From the IMG/VR virus record IMGVR_UViG_3300036861_001106, positions 32,001-96,000 of that record: a stretch of DNA of 64,000 bases. One strand, written 5' to 3'. This document shows, in pieces, positions 13,556 to 55,956 of the stretch. The number at the start of each line of letters is the position of its first letter. The first letter of the stretch is position 1. The stretch is from a virus. The translations under genes and the position numbers were made by a program. Below the pieces are notes generated by a model, which did no database searches, was not told the DNA's origin, and saw only the letters and a program-made list of their open reading frames with translations.

Positions 13556-13584
13556 TTGACAGGTGTCAGCCCGTGGGGTAGAAT
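13556..13584 (+). promoter_or_regulatory. sigma70-type promoter, probably leaderless
   Basis: TTGACA-17 nt-TAGAAT, GTG start 6 nt downstream, no SD. Confidence 0.7.
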
Positions 13585-35483: not shown

Positions 35484-36074
35484 TCACCGCGCCGCCTCCG
35501 CGCGCTCCCGCAGCGTCGCCACCATGCGCTCAAGCTGCGGCGTCAGCGCCCCGGTCACCGGGTCGAGGAGCTGCAGCAGCGTGAAGCTGCCCTTCTGCTG
35601 CACCTGTGACCGCGCCAGCAGGTGGTTCAGGTCGGTCAGCCACTGACCCAGGCGCATGGTTGACCATCCCTTGGCGCGCTCCACGTCCTTTTCCTCCAGG
35701 CGCAGCTTCACCCGCCAGGGGAGGTCCACCAGGCAGAGGAGCCACGCGTCGCGCGCGGCCAGGTCCGCGTCGATGGCGCGCCACTGGGCCCCGGTGAGGT
35801 CGCTGGCCTCCTCGCCCGCGCAGGCCCCTGCCGTCAGGTGGCAGCGCGCGATGACGAGCGGCTCAGCAGTGAGGGGGCGCTGCAGGGTCCACTGCAGGTT
35901 CTTGAACTCCTGGTCGACCCGCACGGCGTGGCGGCGGAGGGTGGCGGGCACCTCCTGGGCCAGCCGTTGCGCCAGCGTGTGCACGCCCGAGCAGGGCATG
36001 CCGTCGACGATCACCAGCGGCGGGGGGGGTGGCTTCTTGGGTAAGTCCAGCAGCGAGCGTGGTCTCTTGTCCAT
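35484..36074 (-). CDS. thymidylate-kinase-like P-loop protein with degenerate Walker A
   Basis: VIVDGMPCSGVHTLA; VIARCHLT. Confidence 0.55.
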   Translation of the reverse strand: MDKRPRSLLDLPKKPPPPPLVIVDGMPCSGVHTLAQRLAQEVPATLRRHAVRVDQEFKNLQWTLQRPLTAEPLVIARCHLTAGACAGEEASDLTGAQWRAIDADLAARDAWLLCLVDLPWRVKLRLEEKDVERAKGWSTMRLGQWLTDLNHLLARSQVQQKGSFTLLQLLDPVTGALTPQLERMVATLRERAEAAR

Positions 36075-41920: not shown

Positions 41921-42226
41921 CTAAAAATCGTCTGCGTGTGCCGTAGCGCCTCCCACACGCGCTTCGTTGACGTTCCGTAAGCCCTTCGGCTGTTCAATCA
42001 GACGATTGCGCTCCCAAACCTTGGGAAGTCCTCGGCGTTCGAGGTGGTGAATCACGTAGACTTCCTCACCACTCTCCGTAGCTTCGGCGAGGGTGCAGCT
42101 CTTGCAGCGGTGCTGCACGCTCTTGCCAGTAGCTCGCTTCTTGGGCGCGTAGGTGATGAAGACCAGCCGCTTGTCTCGGCAGGCAGGGCACACCTTCTCC
42201 TGGCGCTCGTAGTTCGCGATCGTCAC
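41921..42226 (-). CDS. Zn-ribbon hypothetical protein
   Basis: CPAC..CKSC. Confidence 0.5.
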   Translation of the reverse strand: MTIANYERQEKVCPACRDKRLVFITYAPKKRATGKSVQHRCKSCTLAEATESGEEVYVIHHLERRGLPKVWERNRLIEQPKGLRNVNEARVGGATAHADDF

Positions 42227-45200
42227 TGCCCGTCCTCCGAATCAATCATATCAGTTTTCAAGTCCGGCTTCCACGCCCTCCACCGCCGCAGCCGCCGCGC
42301 CTCCTGCGCGTAGAGGCGCCCGTCCGGCGCCTGCCAGCACCGCACGAGCCACGTGTTGCCCAGCCCCAGCCCCGGGCCATCGAGCAGCCTGGCCGTTTGG
42401 TGCCGCTTCCAGGCCTTGGCGCTGAAGCCCACGTCGACGCTGCCGCTCTCGTCCGTCAGGGTGCAGCGCAGCTTGAGCCGGGGCTCCCCTGGCGCCGGTG
42501 GTTGGCTGCCGTACTTCTTCGCCTGCACCGCCAGGTCGATCAGGCTGCGCTCCGTCACGCGGCCCAACACCGTCACGCTGTCGTCGCGCACCTCCCGCCA
42601 CCGGATCGGCTGCAGGCCAAGCTGCTCACGGTACGCCCGCTCCGGCGGGGTGAGGGGGCGCAACGGGTACCAGCAGGCGAGGTGCTGCAGCACGTCACTG
42701 TCCAGCCCGGCCGGCGTCACCACCGCTGCCAGGGGCTCGCGCACGGTCTTGGGCAGCGCCGCCAGCAGCTCCTGCCAGCCCCGCGGGGCCAGCCGCAGGA
42801 CCTTGGCCGCGGACTTCGCGGCGCACCCCCGGAGGCTCACGAGCCCCCCGCGCACGCGCCAGGGGTCCACCGGGTCGTGGGTGAAGTCGGCGGCGGGGTC
42901 GGTGGGGTTGAGGAGGCTGACCCGCCCCCCGCGCTCCAGGAACTCGCGCAGCAGGGCGAACCGGCGCTCGTCGGGGTCCAGGTTGCCGACGTGGCGGCAC
43001 AGGGCAGCGGTGAAGAGCCCGGGGTGGTGCACCTTGAGGTAGCCCGTCCAGGCACCTAGGTAGGCGTACTGGCAAGCGTGCGCCTCGCAGAAGAGATAAT
43101 TGGCAGCCTTCTTCACCTGAAGGAACGCCTCAATGACCTGCGCCACCGGCACGCCAGCCTGGTACCAGCCGAGACCGAGGGGCTTGCGGTACGCCTCAAT
43201 GGCGTCTGCCCCACCGCTCTTGCTGGCCAGCTTGCGGATCTTGTGGACGTCCTCGATCGGCAGCCCGGCGAGCTGGGCCAGGGCCATCGCCTGTTCCTGA
43301 TAGACGACCGTGCCGTAGGTCAGGCCCAGGATCGCCTGCAGCTCAGGGATCAGCGTCGGCATCTCCTCGCGCCCCCACTTGCGCGCCACGAAGCGCTTGA
43401 CCCCGCCGGACTGCAGGGGGCCCGGGCGCGCCAGTGCGGACACGGCAGTGAACTCCTCGAAGTTGGCGGGCTGCAGCTCCCGCAGGATGTTGCCGGCGGC
43501 GCGTCCCTGGAGTTGGAAGATCCCCAGGTTCTGCCCCTGCGCCAGCATTGCCAGCACCGCCGGGTCCTCCAGCGGCAGGGCGTAGAGCCACTCGGGGGAC
43601 TTGCCCAGGGCCTGCAGTGTCTCCGCCACTGCGGTCAGGGTGCGACTGCCGAGGAGGTCGATCTTCAGCAGCCCCTGCGCGGCGGCGGTCGCCATGTCCA
43701 CCTGCGCCGTGCGCTCCTTCCCCGGGCGTGCTCCCACCGCCACGACCTCCGCCAGCGGGCGGTCGTCCAGGAGAGCCCCCCCGGCGTGGACGCTGAACTG
43801 CCGCACCTGCCCCTCCAGTTGGGCGGCGATGGCGAGCTGCGGGCAGTAGGTCAGCAGCTTCTGGGCCTTCTCGCTGGTCTCGAAGAGCCGCGCCAGCACC
43901 CCGTAGTCGTGGAGCCCCGCGCCCTGATCCTCCCCCTCCGGCACCAGCGTGGCGGCGTGGTGCATGACCTTCTCCGGCAGGTCGTAGGCCTTGCCCACGT
44001 CCAGCAGGGCCTGCCGGGCGCCGAAGCGTGAGAGGGTCGCCACGTGCGCCACGTGCGCCACGCCGTACTTGGCTTCGAGATACTCGAAGGCTTCATGCCG
44101 GCGGTCGTGCTGGAGATCCAGGTCAATATCAGGCAAGTCAGCCCTTGTTTGGTCTAGGAACCTCTCGAAAGGCAGGTTGTGCTTGATCGGGTCCACCACC
44201 GTGACGCCGAGGCAGTGGAGGAGGAGGGACCCACCGGCGCTGCCGCGGGGGACGATGAGGATGTGGCGGGCCCGCATCTCCCGCACGAGGTCAGCCACGA
44301 CGAGGAAGTAGTCAGCGAATTGCTTCTCACAGACCACCGTCAGCTCCCGCTCCAGGCGCTGGTGGTAGGTGCCAACGACGGCGAGGCTCTTGTCCTCGGT
44401 GATCCTCTTCAAGCCCTGCCAGGCCAGCTTCCGCAGCATCTCCACCGCCGACCCGAACCCTGCGGGCACCGTGAACCGAACCCCCGATCCCTTCGGGCAC
44501 TCCGCCACGCACCGCTCCGCCAGCGCCACGCTGCGCTCGATCGCCGCCACCAACTCGATGGTGGGGACGCCGGGCAGCACCGCCTGGCAGCGCGCGAGGA
44601 TCTCTTCACCGCTGCATCTATGGTGGTAGGTTGGCAGCTTCACGCTGCGGTGGGGGTCGTTGACGCGCTGGCCGAGGTTCACCGCCAGGAGGGTGTCCTG
44701 GGCCGCCATGTCCTCCGGGCGCGGGGCGTGGGCGTCGCTGGTGACCACCAGCGGGATCTCAAGCTGCCGCGCCAGCCGCCACAGCACCGGGCAGGCAGCC
44801 TCGCTGATGCCGAGCCCGGGGCAGGGGATGATCTCCACCAGGAAGTGCTCGACGTGCGCCTGCATCCAGGCGAGCCACGCCGCTGCCTCGTCCACCCGGC
44901 CAAGGTTGATGAGCTGCGAGGGGTGCCCGATCACGCAGCCGGAGAGGACGAGCATGTCCCGCTCGCAGTGGCGGGCCAGCATCTGCCGGTCAACCAGCGG
45001 CTTGCGGTGGTAGTGCGTGAACGACTCGCTGACGAGCGCCAGCAGGTTGCGGTACCCCACCTGGGTCTGGGGGATGAGGGTGAGGTGCGCCCGCTTCAGG
45101 GCCTCCTGCTCCCCCTTGCGCCGGTCGCCGCCCTTGTCCTGGCCGAGCAGGGTCACGTCCTCGACGTAGTAGGCCTCTACGCCGAGGAGTGGGCGCAGAC

Positions 45201-45372
45201 CGGCCTTCGTGGCCTCCTGCTGGAAGTCGTGGTGCCCCGCAATCGTTCCGTGATCGCAGCAGGCGACGTGTGACTGCTGTAGCTCCAGCACGCGGGCAGC
45301 ATGCTGGCTTGGAGTTCCAAACCCATCAAGCGCAGAGTAGGTTGAGTGGCAGTGGCAGTCAACGAATCTCAT
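42223..45372 (-). CDS. dnaE: DNA polymerase III alpha subunit (family C)
   Basis: HCHSTYSALDG PHP domain, DHG, RGSAGGS, PDIDLD, HAGG, KIDLLG, RPGP. Confidence 0.95.
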   Translation of the reverse strand: MRFVDCHCHSTYSALDGFGTPSQHAARVLELQQSHVACCDHGTIAGHHDFQQEATKAGLRPLLGVEAYYVEDVTLLGQDKGGDRRKGEQEALKRAHLTLIPQTQVGYRNLLALVSESFTHYHRKPLVDRQMLARHCERDMLVLSGCVIGHPSQLINLGRVDEAAAWLAWMQAHVEHFLVEIIPCPGLGISEAACPVLWRLARQLEIPLVVTSDAHAPRPEDMAAQDTLLAVNLGQRVNDPHRSVKLPTYHHRCSGEEILARCQAVLPGVPTIELVAAIERSVALAERCVAECPKGSGVRFTVPAGFGSAVEMLRKLAWQGLKRITEDKSLAVVGTYHQRLERELTVVCEKQFADYFLVVADLVREMRARHILIVPRGSAGGSLLLHCLGVTVVDPIKHNLPFERFLDQTRADLPDIDLDLQHDRRHEAFEYLEAKYGVAHVAHVATLSRFGARQALLDVGKAYDLPEKVMHHAATLVPEGEDQGAGLHDYGVLARLFETSEKAQKLLTYCPQLAIAAQLEGQVRQFSVHAGGALLDDRPLAEVVAVGARPGKERTAQVDMATAAAQGLLKIDLLGSRTLTAVAETLQALGKSPEWLYALPLEDPAVLAMLAQGQNLGIFQLQGRAAGNILRELQPANFEEFTAVSALARPGPLQSGGVKRFVARKWGREEMPTLIPELQAILGLTYGTVVYQEQAMALAQLAGLPIEDVHKIRKLASKSGGADAIEAYRKPLGLGWYQAGVPVAQVIEAFLQVKKAANYLFCEAHACQYAYLGAWTGYLKVHHPGLFTAALCRHVGNLDPDERRFALLREFLERGGRVSLLNPTDPAADFTHDPVDPWRVRGGLVSLRGCAAKSAAKVLRLAPRGWQELLAALPKTVREPLAAVVTPAGLDSDVLQHLACWYPLRPLTPPERAYREQLGLQPIRWREVRDDSVTVLGRVTERSLIDLAVQAKKYGSQPPAPGEPRLKLRCTLTDESGSVDVGFSAKAWKRHQTARLLDGPGLGLGNTWLVRCWQAPDGRLYAQEARRLRRWRAWKPDLKTDMIDSEDGQ

Positions 45373-45782
45373 CGGTGCCGGACTCCCCACTCACGCTCGA
45401 AGAGGCGACGGATGCGCGGGGACTGCAGGTCAGCGAAGGACCAGACCCTGCGGTGGCAGTAGTTGCAGCGCACTGGCATCTCCTCCTCGGGGACCTGCAC
45501 CATGCCCTCGAACTCGGGGTAGAACGGCAGTGCGCCCATCTTTCGGCACGGGTCGCAGCGCCCATCTACCATGGGGCTCTCTTCAAAGCACCGCGCGCAG
45601 GTGAAATCCTCGTCCTCGTCCAGCTCGCAGTCACACCGTTCGCAGTGCGTGTTGGCGTAGCGCGTCTCGTCGAGGGGCTCGTGACAGCTATCGCAGAGGC
45701 AGACGCCGCCTGGACCTGTGATTCGTGCCTGGTGGCAGCACTCGCAGATGATGGAGCCATCGGTCAGCCGGTCAGCGATCAT
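45369..45782 (-). CDS. Cys-rich Zn-finger protein
   Basis: multiple CxxC. Confidence 0.55.
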   Translation of the reverse strand: MIADRLTDGSIICECCHQARITGPGGVCLCDSCHEPLDETRYANTHCERCDCELDEDEDFTCARCFEESPMVDGRCDPCRKMGALPFYPEFEGMVQVPEEEMPVRCNYCHRRVWSFADLQSPRIRRLFEREWGVRHR

Positions 45783-46510: not shown

Positions 46511-46701
46511 TGCACGCACCATGCGCATGTATACATGCGCATGGCGCGTGCATGAGAATTCTTCATGAACCCGTGAGACCCGTGAGACCCGTGAGACATG
46601 GAAGTACCATGAGACTTTTAGGCACAAAACATGCCTCACAGGTTCATCACGGGAACCTTACAAAACTCTACATCTCTCACATCCCCCCATTCTCACGGGT
46701 T
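46511..46701. repeat. putative replication origin: 42-bp palindrome + iterons
   Basis: palindrome 46511-46552 with one mismatched pair; CCCGTGAGA x3 at 46570-46596; inverted copy at 46691-46701; directly downstream of the helicase. Confidence 0.6.
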
Positions 46702-48453
46702 AGATGCCCCCTGGAGGATCGGTTCCTCAGCTCCCAGTTTCAGCCCATCACGGACACGGAGGGACTTCTTCTGCTCAGCGTCCCACTGAAACCGCGCCTT
46801 CGGGAAGCCGAGCTGGTTCAGCCGCTTCCCGAAGGCGTCCTTGTTGAGCACCTTCTCGTTCCGGTAGCCTGATCGGTCGCACCAGCGCTGGTAGTGCTCG
46901 TAGAGGAGGTTGACAGCCACCCACTGGTCAGCACGCCTGCAGCAGCACTCGTCGAGGAACTGGGCCACGGTGTCCTGGGAGAGGTAGTACTCCTCCTTCA
47001 GCCTGGCGCTTTCCTCCGGTGGGGCAAAGTGCCAGCCGCGCTGTTGCAGCCTGCGTAGGCCGGTGAGGGCAAGGTTGAAGATGCCTGGCAGCTCCAGGCG
47101 CAGCTTGTGATCCAACCTAGTGTCAGCGGGCATGACCTGTTCATCCTTTCGCCAGGGGTCCGCCTCCCCGAACTTGCGGCGCCACTCGATGATGAGCAGC
47201 CGGCGGAAGTAGCCGCGGGTGAGGTCCAGGGTCTCCGGCAGCGTGTTGCAGGAGATCACGAAGCGCATGGTGGGACGGAAGCGAAACTCCTTGCCGTAGG
47301 GGTGTCGAGCCTGGATGGGGTCCTCCCCGGTGAGGATCTTCAGCCACTTTCCACCTGTCCGCATCTCCTCCGGTGCGGGCTCGTCGATGAAGCCCACTAG
47401 CTTGCCCATCAGGCTGGCTCGGTGGTAGCTGGAGGTGAGGTTCTGCAAGATGACGGCTGCGCACTGCTCCTCCCCCACCAGCCGCCGCAGCACACGTGCG
47501 AAGGTTCCCTTGCCGTTGCTGCCCTCGCCGACGTTCACAAGCGCATCCTGGTTGCTGATGTTGCTGGTGAGGCAGCAGCCTAGCCACTCCTCCAGGAGGG
47601 AGATCCACTCCAGGCACGGTGTGCCATCCTCGTTTACGAGCACTTCTCGCAGCCACTGGGTGAAGCGTGGGCAGTCCGCCTTGGGGTCGAATTCGTAGTC
47701 GAGGCAGTAGGTGAACCGATGGCATCGGGAATGTGGGAGGAGCTTGTCCTGGGCCAAGTCGTAGATTCCATTGCGGAGGGGGATGAGACCGGGGTTTTCA
47801 TTCAGTTCCTGTGCCTTGATGATGCCCAGGTCGGTGCGGGCCAACTTGCGCACCCCCTCGATCACCTTGGGGCTCACGCTCACCCCCACGTTGCGTAGGA
47901 AGAGGTGGATGGCGGGGTCAACTTCGTCGTCCGGCGCCACATTCAGCCAGTGTGTGCCTGTGTAGCGAAACCAGAGGTTGCCAGTGACTGCCAGGAAGTC
48001 ACTCTCAACCTCGCTGGCCCAGATGTTGGCCAGCTTGTCGAGCCCCTTCGGTCCAACCTCGGTCTCCAGGTGGCCCTTCTCCTGTAGCCATGCCCGCATG
48101 TCCTTGAGCCTGTACTTCCTTGGTCCTCCTTCCCTCAGGCTGTGGGCGTGGCTGCACTTGAAGACGACGTACGGGTACTCCGTGCCGGACCCGTCGCGCA
48201 CGAAGGTGCTGACGTGGCGCGTCTCGGTTCCATGCTCATCAGCCCATGGGCATGTCACGTGGTGCTTGTCGGCCTCGCTCCGGTCCCGGGACAGGTACAA
48301 CTCGGCCCTCTTGAGGGCCTCAAGCAGCTCCTGACCCTCCCTGGCTCGGTGGGGGTTCGTCTCTCCTTTCCCAGTCTTGGTGCCCTCACTTCCGTTTGCG
48401 CTGGTCGGCGGTAGGTTGCTGATGATTTCGTCGATGTTCATTGCGACGCTCAC
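46693..48453 (-). CDS. D5/P4-family SF3 helicase (primase-associated)
   Basis: NGIYDL, GEGSNGKGT, DE, LTGED, CN.LP, RRLLII. Confidence 0.9.
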   Translation of the reverse strand: MSVAMNIDEIISNLPPTSANGSEGTKTGKGETNPHRAREGQELLEALKRAELYLSRDRSEADKHHVTCPWADEHGTETRHVSTFVRDGSGTEYPYVVFKCSHAHSLREGGPRKYRLKDMRAWLQEKGHLETEVGPKGLDKLANIWASEVESDFLAVTGNLWFRYTGTHWLNVAPDDEVDPAIHLFLRNVGVSVSPKVIEGVRKLARTDLGIIKAQELNENPGLIPLRNGIYDLAQDKLLPHSRCHRFTYCLDYEFDPKADCPRFTQWLREVLVNEDGTPCLEWISLLEEWLGCCLTSNISNQDALVNVGEGSNGKGTFARVLRRLVGEEQCAAVILQNLTSSYHRASLMGKLVGFIDEPAPEEMRTGGKWLKILTGEDPIQARHPYGKEFRFRPTMRFVISCNTLPETLDLTRGYFRRLLIIEWRRKFGEADPWRKDEQVMPADTRLDHKLRLELPGIFNLALTGLRRLQQRGWHFAPPEESARLKEEYYLSQDTVAQFLDECCCRRADQWVAVNLLYEHYQRWCDRSGYRNEKVLNKDAFGKRLNQLGFPKARFQWDAEQKKSLRVRDGLKLGAEEPILQGASNP

Positions 48454-49187
48454 TCCCTGATGTCGATGATCTTGGCGATTCGGTGGGGTCGTCCCTCCTC
48501 GGGACAGTGTGACCCCTTGCAGGCCATGGTGCCGTAGAGTCGCACCAACCGTGCTGCGTTGTGCGTGGTGACGTCGATCATTACCTCCTCGTCGCTGAAC
48601 TTGGCAGTCAAGCGTTCCAGGACTTCACGGCACTTGTTCAGGTGCTCCACGTCGTTAGGAAGGTCGACCCGCATCAGCACGTGCGCTCCATTGCCGGAGG
48701 CAGCAGTGATCAGCCCCTGGTGGCCAGTGGCGGTGAGGAAGTCTCGAACTGTCATTGCACGCTTGACTGCCTTCAGTAGCTCCTGGTTCGTGCTGCTGAT
48801 CCCGGGGACCGGGGGTGTTCGCTTGACGTCACAGTCGATGAGGAGCCATGTGCGTCGTAGCACGTGGTCATCCATCGTCGTGCTGCGTGGTCTCCAGCGT
48901 AGCCGATTCTTGCACCGGCAGATCAGGTCGCGACGGATGGGATTGGACACGAAGTAGACCCCCTCTGCTGCGCCGGAGAGCCGGGCCGCATCCCTCACCA
49001 TCGCGCGTGGGTCGTCATAGTAGCCTGATACGGTGGTCTCATACCGGTGATCGGGGTCACTCCTTGGGTCTGACCAGTTGATTGCGCGTAGCTCCCAGCA
49101 GCAGTCAGGACTCCACCGCATGATCTTTGTCATCACCAGACTTAGCTGCTTGAGGTCGAATCGTTGAGCCTCGGCGCTCACACTCAT
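48450..49187 (-). CDS. primase-like protein (AEP-type)
   Basis: LLIDCD, SGNGAH, NAARLVRLYGT. Confidence 0.7.
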   Translation of the reverse strand: MSVSAEAQRFDLKQLSLVMTKIMRWSPDCCWELRAINWSDPRSDPDHRYETTVSGYYDDPRAMVRDAARLSGAAEGVYFVSNPIRRDLICRCKNRLRWRPRSTTMDDHVLRRTWLLIDCDVKRTPPVPGISSTNQELLKAVKRAMTVRDFLTATGHQGLITAASGNGAHVLMRVDLPNDVEHLNKCREVLERLTAKFSDEEVMIDVTTHNAARLVRLYGTMACKGSHCPEEGRPHRIAKIIDIRE

Positions 49188-49229
49188 CTCCTTTCGGTGG
49201 GGACCGTTGGTGAAATTCAAACGCGCCAC

Positions 49230-49258
49230 TTGACAGTCGAGTGCTTCCTCGGTATCAT
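49230..49258 (+). promoter_or_regulatory. antisense promoter inside the primase leader
   Basis: TTGACA-17-TATCAT. Confidence 0.65.
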
Positions 49259-49374
49259 GAGAGTGGCTCGACAAGACTCTCCTTGGTCCGAAGAGCTTTC
49301 TGTGCGCGGTCTACCTGACCCTACCCATCCGTCCTCGAAGCCACAGCCGGTCCCCACTAGCTGTGGCTTCCTCC

Positions 49375-49403
49375 ATGGTAACGCTTTCCTCCTCCCACGT
49401 CAA
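49375..49403 (-). promoter_or_regulatory. promoter of the primase/helicase operon
   Basis: TTGACG-17-TACCAT. Confidence 0.6.
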
Positions 49404-49429
49404 GCAAAATAGGGGGCCTCGCGGCCCCC
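49404..49429 (-). terminator. intrinsic terminator
   Basis: GGGGGCC-GCGA-GGCCCCC then TATTTT. Confidence 0.65.
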
Positions 49430-49451
49430 AGCGTCAGCTTCTCACCGTCCC

Positions 49452-50150
49452 TCAGGCGAACTTGTCGCCAGCCGCCGGCACCTCGCGGAACCCGGGCTCG
49501 CGATACCCATCTGGGAAGCGGATGACGAATTTTATCGACTCCACCTCTGTCCCGTCAGCGCGCTCCCACTTCTGCTTCTCCGGCACAACCTCCACCCACA
49601 GCCGCTTCCCAACTGCGGTCTCGCGGCGCATCCGCACCTTCCCGGTCTCCGCGTCGCGCAGCCCGATGGCCTCGGCGAAGCGGTACGTCTTCACCACCCC
49701 GCCCCCCTCAATGGGGAAGTACTCGTCGCGGTAGTTGCCCTTGTTCGGCCCCGCCAGGCACTTCAACTCCACCTTCTTGGACTTGTTCCCTGACCGCGCG
49801 AGGTGGGGCTCGTAGCTCATGACCTCGCAGTAGTGCCAGCCCTCCGGCCACTCCAGCTTCAGGTCGCTGGGGTCCAGCTCCACGAGGTCCTCGTCCTCGT
49901 CCTCCGCCTCGTCGAACAGCCCACCCTGCCCTACCAGGGTCTCCTCCGCTGCGCCGTTGGCGCTTGCAGCCGGGGTCCTTGGCTGTGCCGGGGGTGGCGC
50001 TGCGGCAGTTCGTGTTGCCGTCTTGGGTGCCTCCGCTGCCGGTGGCCTGCTCGGCCCTGTCACCGGCTCCTCGTTCTCCAGGAACGCCAGGATCTCCGCG
50101 TCCTCCTCCGCGCTGAAGGCTCGGGTTCCAGTTGTCTGATCGCTCGTCAT
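49452..50150 (-). CDS. DUF669-like ssDNA-binding protein
   Basis: PEGWHYCEV..SGN..V.L..GP..G; acidic N-terminus. Confidence 0.6.
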   Translation of the reverse strand: MTSDQTTGTRAFSAEEDAEILAFLENEEPVTGPSRPPAAEAPKTATRTAAAPPPAQPRTPAASANGAAEETLVGQGGLFDEAEDEDEDLVELDPSDLKLEWPEGWHYCEVMSYEPHLARSGNKSKKVELKCLAGPNKGNYRDEYFPIEGGGVVKTYRFAEAIGLRDAETGKVRMRRETAVGKRLWVEVVPEKQKWERADGTEVESIKFVIRFPDGYREPGFREVPAAGDKFA

Positions 50151-50152
50151 CG

Positions 50153-50842
50153 TCAGTTCTCCTCCTGTGTGTCGTCTTGTGTGTCATCAAGGATCGCGCG
50201 CATGTCCTGGTCTGGCCAGAACAGCACGTGCGCACACTGCTCGCTGATCACCTGCCGGCTGCAGGCGTTGAACAGCATCCGATCCGGGTTCGTGATCCAC
50301 GCCCCTGGGCCGCGAGGACCACTCCGCACGAGCCCAGCCTGCCTCGCCTGGTCGATGGTGTACGTCACCCGCGCCAGCTCGTGGCCTCGGCGCCACAGCG
50401 CCACGGTGCAGGCGGTGGCGCTGCGCTCCACCACGCGCAGCTCGTACCCGTTGCGGCGCGCCAGTGCCCGCTGGAGCTGCGCGCTGAAGCTGATGCTGCC
50501 CTGGACCAGGAAGATGTGGCTGCAGCCCACCATGGGGTTCAACCCCAACTCCTGAGCCAGCACCATCTTCGTCATCAGCTCTGCGCCCTTCACGCCGGGG
50601 TACAGGTTGGACTTCGCCGCCACCAGGGCCAGGTACTCCAACTGCTTGAGGCTGAGCTGGCGGGCCACCAGGGGCTCGGCGGGGGCCACCAGCCCCGTCT
50701 CTGCCCGCTGCAGCGCCACCGGTGGTGGCTGTGCCGTCTCCGCAGGCTCCACCGTCCCTGCGTAGGCTACCTCAATCTCCTCAGGTCCCTCCACCTCGGT
50801 CTCCACCATGTCTTCATTGCTCCGTTCCATCGTCTCCGTCAT
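50153..50842 (-). CDS. RecT-like single-strand annealing recombinase
   Basis: ELGLNPM..I..VQG, YTIDQA.QAGL, W...P.RML. Confidence 0.7.
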   Translation of the reverse strand: MTETMERSNEDMVETEVEGPEEIEVAYAGTVEPAETAQPPPVALQRAETGLVAPAEPLVARQLSLKQLEYLALVAAKSNLYPGVKGAELMTKMVLAQELGLNPMVGCSHIFLVQGSISFSAQLQRALARRNGYELRVVERSATACTVALWRRGHELARVTYTIDQARQAGLVRSGPRGPGAWITNPDRMLFNACSRQVISEQCAHVLFWPDQDMRAILDDTQDDTQEEN

Positions 50843-51872
50843 TCTCACCCTCGTTCTCGCACGTGCCTGCCGTTCGCAGGACATCAGCACAGCCTTCCAC
50901 CCACGGGGCCAGGAACTCCCCCAGCTCCACCTTGAAGCGGTTGAACTCCCGGCCACGAAACACGCGCACGTGCGCCGGGTGGTGGATGGTCCGCACCCGG
51001 CCAATGCGCTTGTGGGGTTCAAGCCACCATCCCAGGGCATTCTTGACGCACAGCTCCGCCACCTTGCCGAGGCAGAGGATGCGCTCTACCGTCTCCTCAG
51101 GGTCCAGGGAGTCCAGGAGGCTCCAGCGACCCACCTCGGGCCTGAAGGTGCTGGCGTTGCACCAGGCGCCCTCCTCCCACCGCAGCCCGACCTCGTCCAC
51201 CGCGCGCCACAGGAGCTGGCTCGCCGGGCCCCGGCTGAAGGGCAAGTCCGGCGCATCCCCAGCCCCCGTCAGCGGGCACACCCCCGGTGCTGGCCCCTCA
51301 CCAATCACCAGAAACTGCGGCTTCACGCTGCCCGTCGCCAGGCTCGGTGGGGGCCGGCCTTGTGCCAACGCCTCCAGCCTGCGGGCGAGGTCGAGTGACT
51401 CCTGCAGCACCGGGCTCCCCGGCCCCAGCAGCTCGCTGCGCGTGGCGCGCACGGTGGGCAGCCGCGTGCGCCACCCACCCCGGATCTCGTGTGCCGCGCC
51501 ATCGCGGTACCAGTCCACTACCCTCGCTGAGTCGAAGTGCCGCAGCTCCAGCGGCAGGTCCTCTTCCGCCACGTCGCCGTCCGGGAGGACCACCAGCACC
51601 ACCGCGCCCAGCGCCAGCGCGCACAGCTCCACCTGGCGCCATGCCTCGCACCGCTCGGGGTGGTAGCCCAGGAACGCCAGCCGCACCACGTCGCTCAAGT
51701 GACTGCGCAGCAGGCAGAGGCGCGGCTGCGCGTCAGCCAGGAGATGTAGCAAATTTCCGGCGAACATGTTCGGCTCGACCTGGTACCGGCGCAAGCTGTA
51801 CGCCCAGTGGTCGCGCAGGTGCAGCCCAACGTCAATCAGGTCGGTCTCGACTGGCCCTTCGATGACGATCAT
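50814..51872 (-). CDS. degenerate nucleotide-kinase domain fused to a uracil-DNA-glycosylase-like domain
   Basis: MIVIEG start; C-terminal IGEGP, PF, N, LCLGKVA, HHPA. Confidence 0.6.
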   Translation of the reverse strand: MIVIEGPVETDLIDVGLHLRDHWAYSLRRYQVEPNMFAGNLLHLLADAQPRLCLLRSHLSDVVRLAFLGYHPERCEAWRQVELCALALGAVVLVVLPDGDVAEEDLPLELRHFDSARVVDWYRDGAAHEIRGGWRTRLPTVRATRSELLGPGSPVLQESLDLARRLEALAQGRPPPSLATGSVKPQFLVIGEGPAPGVCPLTGAGDAPDLPFSRGPASQLLWRAVDEVGLRWEEGAWCNASTFRPEVGRWSLLDSLDPEETVERILCLGKVAELCVKNALGWWLEPHKRIGRVRTIHHPAHVRVFRGREFNRFKVELGEFLAPWVEGCADVLRTAGTCENEGENDGDDGTEQ

Positions 51873-55881: not shown

Positions 55882-55956
55882 CGCTTGCTTTAGTCTACCG
55901 ACGCTTGCTTCCAACGTCAAGTCTCCTTGACAAAACGCTTGCTTCGCGGGCACAAT
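55882..55956. promoter_or_regulatory. divergent promoters with three CGCTTGCTT repeats
   Basis: leftward TTGACG-17-TAGACT (55920-55892); rightward TTGACA-18-CACAAT (55927-55956). Confidence 0.6.

Follow-up and report, generated by a model that had tools for sequence, protein, structure and literature searches.

How is the entrance to the replication operon of a large, uncultured soil phage controlled? The question is raised by a 265-bp non-coding gap (49451-49188) that precedes a primase-polymerase gene in IMG/VR virus record IMGVR_UViG_3300036861_001106, the complete genome, 109,530 bp long with direct terminal repeats, of a phage with a G+C content of ~66%. Positions 32001-96000 of this record, a stretch of 64,000 nucleotides (nt), are referred to here as the window, and all coordinates are those of the window unless the genome is named. 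The gap contains a strong rightward promoter, P(+), which faces a weaker leftward candidate, P(-), and a hairpin whose loop is complementary to bases beside the Shine-Dalgarno sequence (SD) of the primase-polymerase gene (Table 1). Antisense RNA combined with a long-range pseudoknot is textbook copy-number control in enterobacterial plasmids, and we know of no large, virulent-looking phage in whose replication operon such control has been demonstrated. The best reading of the locus, which we hold with slightly less than even confidence, is that the gap acts as a counter-transcript gate on the replication operon, long-range RNA pairing included.

In the proposed mechanism, the gap would be a gate at the operon entrance, where leftward transcription of the upstream genes would halt at an intrinsic terminator and be restarted by the weak P(-). 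The new mRNA would carry the 11-bp hairpin first and then an untranslated leader of ~180 nt. From within this leader P(+), among the strongest host-type promoters of the phage, would fire head-on into P(-) and would yield a non-coding RNA that is antisense to the 5' half of the leader. The counter-transcript would lower replication-gene expression through transcriptional interference with the weaker P(-) and also through pairing with the leader hairpin. In turn, as many as 10 nt of the hairpin loop would base-pair with a site that lies 150 nt further along the RNA, immediately upstream of the SD. Because the antisense loop carries the same 10 bases as this site next to the ribosome-binding site (RBS), both would compete for the hairpin loop, which would couple antisense binding at the 5' end to translation initiation. 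The long-range pairing is proposed to be stimulatory and the antisense RNA inhibitory, a logic like that of the IncI-alpha/IncB plasmids. The pseudoknot part of the scheme is plausible, if unproven.

The case for P(+) rests on the phage's own promoters. Sites with at least 10 of 12 matches to TTGACA-16/18-TATAAT occur nine times in the genome (0.5 expected), and those with at least 11 of 12 occur four times (0 expected). Alignment of these sites yields a phage-specific extended consensus, TTGACA-N13/14-(C)GGTA[G/T][A/C][A/C]T, also written TTGACA-N13/14-CGGTAGAAT, which is useful for annotating this genome. On a matrix built from ten other promoters of the phage, with both P(+) and P(-) excluded from training, P(+) scores 25.6 bits; the training promoters score 19-29.5 bits, while the best site in each of ten shuffled genomes reached 11.6-17.5 bits. 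Judged by this matrix, P(+) is a member of the phage's own strong promoter class, and it is very probably real and functional. Between ~38.9 and 55.9 kb of the window, the minus strand carries the convincing genes, which include those for a SNF2 helicase, a RecT-like protein, a 232-aa protein and the replication block. Among the eleven promoters examined, most have a co-oriented gene start within ~40 nt, usually with an SD, and only P(+) opposes the surrounding gene block with no gene behind it. Behind one of the eleven, which lies beyond the window, is a unit of hairpin and terminator that resembles a small RNA.

Since no plausible gene lies behind P(+), its RNA is expected to be non-coding. 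The frames behind the promoter have either a G+C content at third codon positions (GC3) of 0.57, which is non-coding-like, or the codon-position pattern of a shadow frame; the neighbouring genes have a GC3 of 0.74-0.91, and the opposing 232-aa gene shows a coding pattern (0.68/0.48/0.85). The P(+) transcript should be antisense to the first ~105 nt of the leader and run on across P(-) and the terminator. Its predicted start lies 78-84 nt upstream of the two candidate start codons, ATG and GTG, and ~104 bp from that of the leftward transcript (~49265 and ~49368, respectively). The plus-strand RNA is C-rich and G-poor (C 37-41%, G 20-23%), a composition compatible with Rho-dependent termination. 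Both transcripts, and their ends, are what we infer from these features.

The second line of evidence is the complementarity between the hairpin loop and the RBS. The 10-mer GTGGGGACCG is present in exactly two copies in the window, on the plus strand at the distal pairing site and on the minus strand at the loop, the distal site CGGUCCCCAC being separated from the SD by the two nt CG. These are also the only exact copies in the genome, where copies with one mismatch number 9 against 12 expected, and in the whole genome no further copy stands beside a gene start. With only one gene-start target in the genome, any action would therefore be in cis on the primase-polymerase gene. In 3000 dinucleotide-preserving shuffles of the 191-nt leader, each searched for a hairpin of at least 6 bp with a loop complement elsewhere, a complement of at least 10 nt arose anywhere in the leader once and within 35 nt of the start codon never; complements of at least 8 nt near the start codon were found in 5/3000. 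In the genome itself, there are 53 perfect hairpins with stems of 8 bp or more, and for two of them a 10-nt complement of the loop lies no further than 300 nt away (~0.2 expected per side), and the expected genome-wide number with the partner beside a start codon is ~0.02. Over a scan of very many genomes, these figures are suggestive, not decisive.

The other hairpin of the pair is found at 35572-35602 and has an 8-bp stem and a 15-nt loop. It lies in GCAGC-rich, low-complexity coding sequence, and its complement is probably accidental.

Upstream, the leader is laid out as a restart site would be. P(-) fills the 30 nt between the strong terminator and the hairpin, and its predicted start (~49369-49367) falls on the first bases of the hairpin; this is the position one expects for a restart promoter. 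The hairpin arms, GAAGCCACAGC and GCTGTGGCTTC, form 11 bp with 100% complementarity, and ~130 nt of leader separate the hairpin from the distal pairing site. Were P(-) unused, transcription could enter the leader only by reading through the terminator, and the hairpin would be internal, not 5'-terminal, with the remaining argument unaffected. The first-pass annotation had described this geometry from the letters, and every element of it is present at the coordinates given: the near-consensus convergent promoter scores well above the best site of every shuffled genome, the predicted leader does open with a perfect 11-bp stem, and the exact match of ten loop nt to the bases next to the SD was confirmed. 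Its leftward promoter is present as a sequence, at 12.2 bits on the same matrix a weak one. As to its claim that P(+) would produce an RNA antisense to the hairpin, the strong promoter, the lack of a gene behind it and the overlap of ~105 nt bear it out, and the RNA itself stands as a prediction.

At the translation start, GGAG adjoins ATG 49187 with zero spacer, and a second codon in the same frame, GTG 49181, has a spacing of 6 nt. Because GGAG abuts the ATG in this way, GTG 49181 may be an equally good start of the primase-polymerase and perhaps the true one. A further in-frame codon, TTG 49274 on the minus strand, is preceded by a good SD (AAGGAG, 4-nt spacing; region 49259-49274) and would add 29 residues; translation from it would cross both the pairing site and the SD. 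This extension was rejected as non-coding, since it would give an N-terminus longer than that of all 15 homologues, and 49188-49274 has a GC3 of 0.62.

The gene behind this leader encodes a protein of 245 aa, which itself has no Pfam or PHROG match. The motifs IDCD and SGNGAH are invariant across the alignment with its 15 homologues, and four of the 16 homologues matched LigD_Prim-Pol. The structure was predicted with a pLDDT of 93, and the best PDB matches of the model are LigD PolDom, the cyanophage S-2L PrimPol, Prim-PolC, archaeal PriS and RepB'. The model has the fold of the AEP family together with its DxD and sGxGxH motifs, and on the predicted structure it is an AEP primase-polymerase. 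Its stop codon is overlapped by the start of a helicase gene of the D5/P4 type, and three small frames lie between this and a DnaE-type polymerase gene. The model matches, the LigD_Prim-Pol matches of the homologues and the invariant motifs make the earlier label of a primase/helicase operon correct: primase-polymerase, D5-type helicase and DnaE-type polymerase form one tightly packed leftward block.

In the IncI-alpha and IncB plasmids, the antisense RNA is encoded ~100 bp upstream of rep and binds a stem-loop in the leader (PMC4705826, PMC8053102, PMC10724649), while the free stem-loop pairs with the bases immediately 5' of the rep SD and enables translation (PMC4705826). By prediction from its sequence, the phage leader shares several features with IncI-alpha (ColIb-P9 repZ and Inc RNA), IncB, IncK and IncL/M. 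These are an antisense gene within the leader, ~80-100 bp upstream of the start of the replication gene; a stem-loop near the 5' end as the antisense target; a loop complementary to the bases immediately 5' of the SD; an antisense loop with the same bases as the distal site, and hence competition; and a possible GUG start. The two differ in that the pairing covers 10 nt here as against GGCG/CGCC in ColIb-P9, and that the UUGGCG loop motif of IncI-alpha/IncB is replaced by the loop UAGUGGGGACCG. The leader peptide whose termination exposes the site in IncI-alpha is not found here, and where IncI-alpha has a weak, masked SD and start codon, the phage has a strong SD and no predicted stable lock. 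The controlled gene is an AEP primase-polymerase at the head of a helicase and polymerase operon, whereas that of IncI-alpha is a plasmid Rep initiator; the replicon is not a plasmid but a 109.5-kb phage with terminal repeats and without partition or integration genes. The analogy drawn by the first-pass annotation is therefore retained in part: of the features that define IncI/IncB control, the antisense promoter in the leader and the loop complement beside the SD are present, and a masked weak RBS, a leader peptide, the UUGGCG loop and a plasmid Rep context were not found. With these four defining features missing and no sequence or Rfam relationship to IncI-alpha/IncB, the element does not belong to that family; it is a credible counter-transcript gate that would work like IncI/IncB control, if at all.

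Face-to-face promoters are also known from coliphage 186, in which 'sitting duck' interference represses the weaker promoter ~5.6-fold (PMC6593788). As in 186 (pR against pL) and P2, where RNA polymerases from the strong promoter can displace complexes from the weak one, a strong promoter here converges with a weaker one at a distance of about 100 bp or less (PMC6593788); P(+) and P(-) are of unequal strength (25.6 and 12.2 bits) with overlapping predicted transcripts, and may interfere in the same manner. In 186, however, both transcripts are protein-coding and the repressor-governed switch decides between lysis and lysogeny, whereas in our phage the strong transcript is apparently non-coding, no repressor was identified and there are no lysogeny genes. 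The P22 sar RNA and the lambda OOP RNA are likewise small phage counter-transcripts from promoters inside or beside the target gene. Those RNAs reach the RBS or the target's 3' end by direct overlap, whereas the predicted antisense RNA covers the distal 5' leader only and would need the long-range link to act at the RBS. A further comparison is with P4, which keeps its primase-helicase off with a hairpin RNA that is encoded in the leader and pairs with complementary sites of its own transcript (PMC4825925). P4 CI RNA and the c4 RNA of P1/P7 share with the present leader a short hairpin that lies in the untranslated leader of one of the phage's operons, for replication or for an antirepressor, and a loop-complementary site on the same transcript (PMC4825925, PMC5499578), and the P4 replication protein has the same type of helicase. 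These are same-strand RNAs, processed by RNase P, with at least two target sites and a role in lysogens, whereas here there is one site, at a gene start, and in addition a true antisense promoter; the Rfam families concerned (RF01695; seqA/isrK, RF01394) gave no covariance-model match.

Folding predictions are compatible with a switch. The 10-bp duplex has a predicted energy of -20.4 kcal/mol, and 10.4 kcal/mol must be spent to open the loop and its target in the unknotted ensemble; with the usual pseudoknot penalty the two states would be about equal in energy, which would suit a switch. By itself the distal target folds as a mini-hairpin (CGGU-CCCC-ACCG), enclosed by a weak 5-bp helix in which part of the SD is paired. 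By sequence, the effect could have either sign. We infer pairing in vivo, and favour a stimulatory pairing with an inhibitory antisense RNA, because any interference of P(+) with P(-) would have to be negative, and in a coherent device the effect at the RNA level should have that sign too; the opposite, a self-inhibitory clamp, is among the rival readings.

Several results weigh against the gate as proposed. If the 11-bp stem stays closed, two loop bases (UA) are all that is left to span the helix, and from the geometry of H-type pseudoknots the full 10 bp would probably be strained, with ~6-8 bp being realistic. Folding gives no sign of a masked RBS that the pseudoknot would open; for the strong SD, AAAGGAG, the predicted unpaired probability is 0.51 in the free leader and hardly changes when the target is held open (0.52) or the antisense RNA is bound (0.55). 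No leader peptide with an SD ends near the RBS: just two starts in the leader have an SD in front of them, that of a 5-codon frame far upstream and the in-frame TTG 49274, and a 13-codon frame from ATG 49259 to TGA 49221-49219, which stops 12 nt before the pairing target, has no SD (read by eye). P(-), which has no GG ahead of its -10 hexamer, is not significant by score alone, as shuffled genomes contain 0-4 sites at its level. The plus strand has no canonical terminator for the counter-transcript, both of its hairpins being without a U tract. The chance of finding such a pairing beside a start codon is ~1-2% genome-wide, which is not negligible across many scanned genomes. As for expression of either RNA, the stretch was matched in only two soil metagenome DNA runs, both possibly its source, and no RNA run was among the matches.

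The closest relatives of the primase-polymerase in protein databases, on Logan contigs, are 51% and 48% identical, too distant for covariation. In 32 distant relatives with at least 100 nt of upstream non-coding sequence, no strong antisense promoter was found in the leader (0/32) and no RBS-directed complement recurs; a loop-to-segment complement is present in one of the 32, the closest IMG/VR relative, where the geometry is different.

The strong promoter evidence for P(+) would serve equally a reading in which counter-transcription alone represses the operon, by promoter interference, polymerase collision, ordinary antisense pairing or RNase III cleavage. The 10-nt match would then be fortuitous, or a neutral product of template switching, and the hairpin a 5' stabiliser or an antisense recognition loop. 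We consider this form of the gate, without the long-range pairing, rather unlikely, though it has a substantial claim: convergent-promoter interference requires no RNA pairing (PMC6593788), the predicted accessibility of the SD is unchanged with or without the long-range pairing, there is no leader peptide, and the coding-region hairpin at 35572-35602 also has a 10-nt loop complement nearby, from which it appears that matches can arise without obvious function. What it leaves to chance is that the match falls both in a hairpin loop and beside an SD, an event absent from the 3000 shuffles and expected ~0.02 times in the genome. P(+) would be separate or accessory if the 5' hairpin, perhaps processed to a stable small RNA, were a repressor of the P4 CI or P1/P7 c4 type that pairs beside the SD in cis or in trans and either prevents translation or brings about termination in the replication operon. 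In favour of this, the phage encodes a helicase of the P4/D5 type, P4 silences its replication genes by an RNA processed from the same leader that pairs upstream and downstream (PMC4825925), and a 10-bp helix so close (2 nt) to a strong SD would be expected to hinder 30S binding more readily than to help it. Such a repressor is nevertheless improbable, given a single target site beside a gene start in the genome, no Rfam C4 or isrK/seqA match at E <= 1 and no lysogeny genes for which immunity would be needed; moreover, it leaves unexplained why a top-class promoter faces the hairpin.

P(+) might also have another job. Origins of replication often lie near initiator or primase genes, so that the promoter could activate or prime an adjacent origin by transcription, or it could express a very small protein from a frame that is open behind it (e.g., a 36-codon GTG frame at 49302-49412). 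We rate these uses as still less probable than the repressor hairpin, since the frame has a GC3 of 0.57 and no good SD, a search for direct and inverted repeats found no iterons or direct-repeat arrays in 48900-49800, and a C-rich, G-poor RNA would have the wrong bias for a stable R-loop. Finally, the two 10-bp copies could be DNA sites of a regulatory protein, for example a repressor that loops the intervening 151 bp over both promoters. The copy at 49195-49208 lies within a palindrome (CGGT-N4-ACCG) and the two sites flank P(+). The second copy, however, is not palindromic; only two exact copies exist in the genome, copies with one mismatch do not exceed expectation (9 against 12), and the centre-to-centre distance of 151 bp is a non-integral number of helical turns. 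The 10-mer also has an asymmetric GGGG core, present in inverted orientation, which would suit RNA pairing more than a symmetric operator, and we consider a protein-bound pair of sites very unlikely.

Returning to the counter-transcript gate, the first-pass annotation had proposed a copy-number or replication switch in a phage, perhaps a phage-plasmid. Families of integrases, resolvases and partition proteins (Phage_integrase, Resolvase, ParB_N, CbiA and AAA_31) had no match in the complete 109.5-kb genome, while control genomes matched. The absence of tyrosine integrase, serine recombinase, ParB and ParA-type families suggests that the phage is virulent, or else lysogenic in some unrecognised way, and because the complete genome has no such match the phage-plasmid and copy-number ideas are unsupported. 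A gate that sets when, or how strongly, the replication genes are expressed during infection describes the element better. A bolder form of the proposal would be that a large phage without genes for lysogeny or plasmid maintenance meters or times translation of primase-polymerase, helicase and DnaE by a plasmid-style RNA switch, in which a strong constitutive counter-transcript is set against a 10-nt loop-to-RBS pseudoknot, independently of IncI/IncB and with no leader peptide; this we regard as possible but doubtful. If true, it would be a case of convergent evolution, with plasmid logic arising in a virus that infects a high-GC soil host, in a compact element of ~230 bp that can be tested by reporter fusions.

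Table 1. Features of the leader, the replication block and the promoter class in the window; entries named predicted or candidate are to be read as such.
Feature	Position	Strand	Remarks
Loop pairing bases	49348..49357	-	GUGGGGACCG; complementary to 49206-49197 of the same RNA
Distal pairing site	49197..49206	-	CGGUCCCCAC; at -19 to -10 from ATG; ends 2 nt before AAAGGAG
Antisense promoter P(+)	49230..49258	+	TTGACA-17-TATCAT, 11/12; CGGTA before -10; predicted start ~49265
Predicted non-coding counter-transcript	49265..49430	+	Complementary to leader nt 1-105 including hairpin; ends predicted
5' leader hairpin	49337..49370	-	11-bp perfect stem (49337-49347 / 49360-49370); 12-nt loop UAGUGGGGACCG
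Candidate sense promoter P(-)	49375..49403	-	TTGACG-17-TACCAT, 9/12; directly past the leftward terminator
Intrinsic terminator	49412..49429	-	Ends RecT-like and 232-aa genes; stem GGGGGCC/GGCCCCC (7 G-C pairs), loop GCGA, tail TATTTTG
Translation start region	49179..49194	-	SD AAAGGAG (49194-49188), ATG 49187, in-frame GTG 49181
AEP-type primase-polymerase	48450..49187	-	245 aa; IDCD and SGNGAH motifs
D5/P4-type SF3 helicase	46693..48453	-	D5_N, DUF5906, Pox_D5; start overlaps primase-polymerase stop
DnaE-type DNA polymerase III alpha	42223..45390	-	PHP, NTPase and finger domains; same leftward block
232-aa gene	49452-50150	-	Between RecT-like gene and terminator; no Pfam/PHROG match
Further promoters of the class (examples)	13556-13584(+), 41366-41338(-), 21237-21209(-), 55927-55956(+), 55920-55892(-)		Pair at 55.9 kb back-to-back

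In the counter-transcript, the loop is CGGUCCCCACUA, which contains the 10 bases of the RBS-proximal target. The N-terminal third of the 232-aa gene product is rich in Pro and Ala, and the position of the gene beside that for the RecT-like protein suggests a recombination or single-stranded DNA-binding partner.

Searches for relatives were made at several levels. Megablast and blastn of the region against a phage collection gave no match, IMG/VR single-protein scans with the primase-polymerase, the helicase and DnaE found no close relatives, a GTDB genome scan for the primase-polymerase found nothing, and an IMG/VR pattern search for both 10-mers at a spacing of 130-160 nt was likewise empty. 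An IMG/VR profile scan with the primase-polymerase yielded 80 loci, the best being 44% identical, and a metagenome scan yielded five (41-43% identity). In an Rfam search of 48000-51000 on both strands at E <= 1, the only match was a spurious microRNA. Contigs from the two soil DNA runs, either of which may be the source, have the identical sequence with zero variants.

The closest IMG/VR relative, IMGVR_UViG_3300036861_000520 (2800-2983), has its primase-polymerase fused to the helicase. Its leader contains a 16-nt segment, GGAGACTTCACCTCCG, that is perfectly complementary to the loop of an 11-bp hairpin; this hairpin is followed by TTTGTT, ending ~12 nt before the ATG. In sequence this leader looks like a two-state one, of the terminator/antiterminator or loop-pairing type.

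The hairpin-terminator unit noted among the promoters lies at genome 1590-1710 on the minus strand. A 29.5-bit promoter is followed there by a unit of ~70 nt that ends in a 14-bp G+C hairpin and UCUCUCUUUG, with a second promoter, TTGACA-19-TAGAAT, beyond it, and the unit is a candidate small RNA gene. As a partner of the primase-polymerase leader it was rejected, its predicted pairing being weaker than that of random pieces of the genome.

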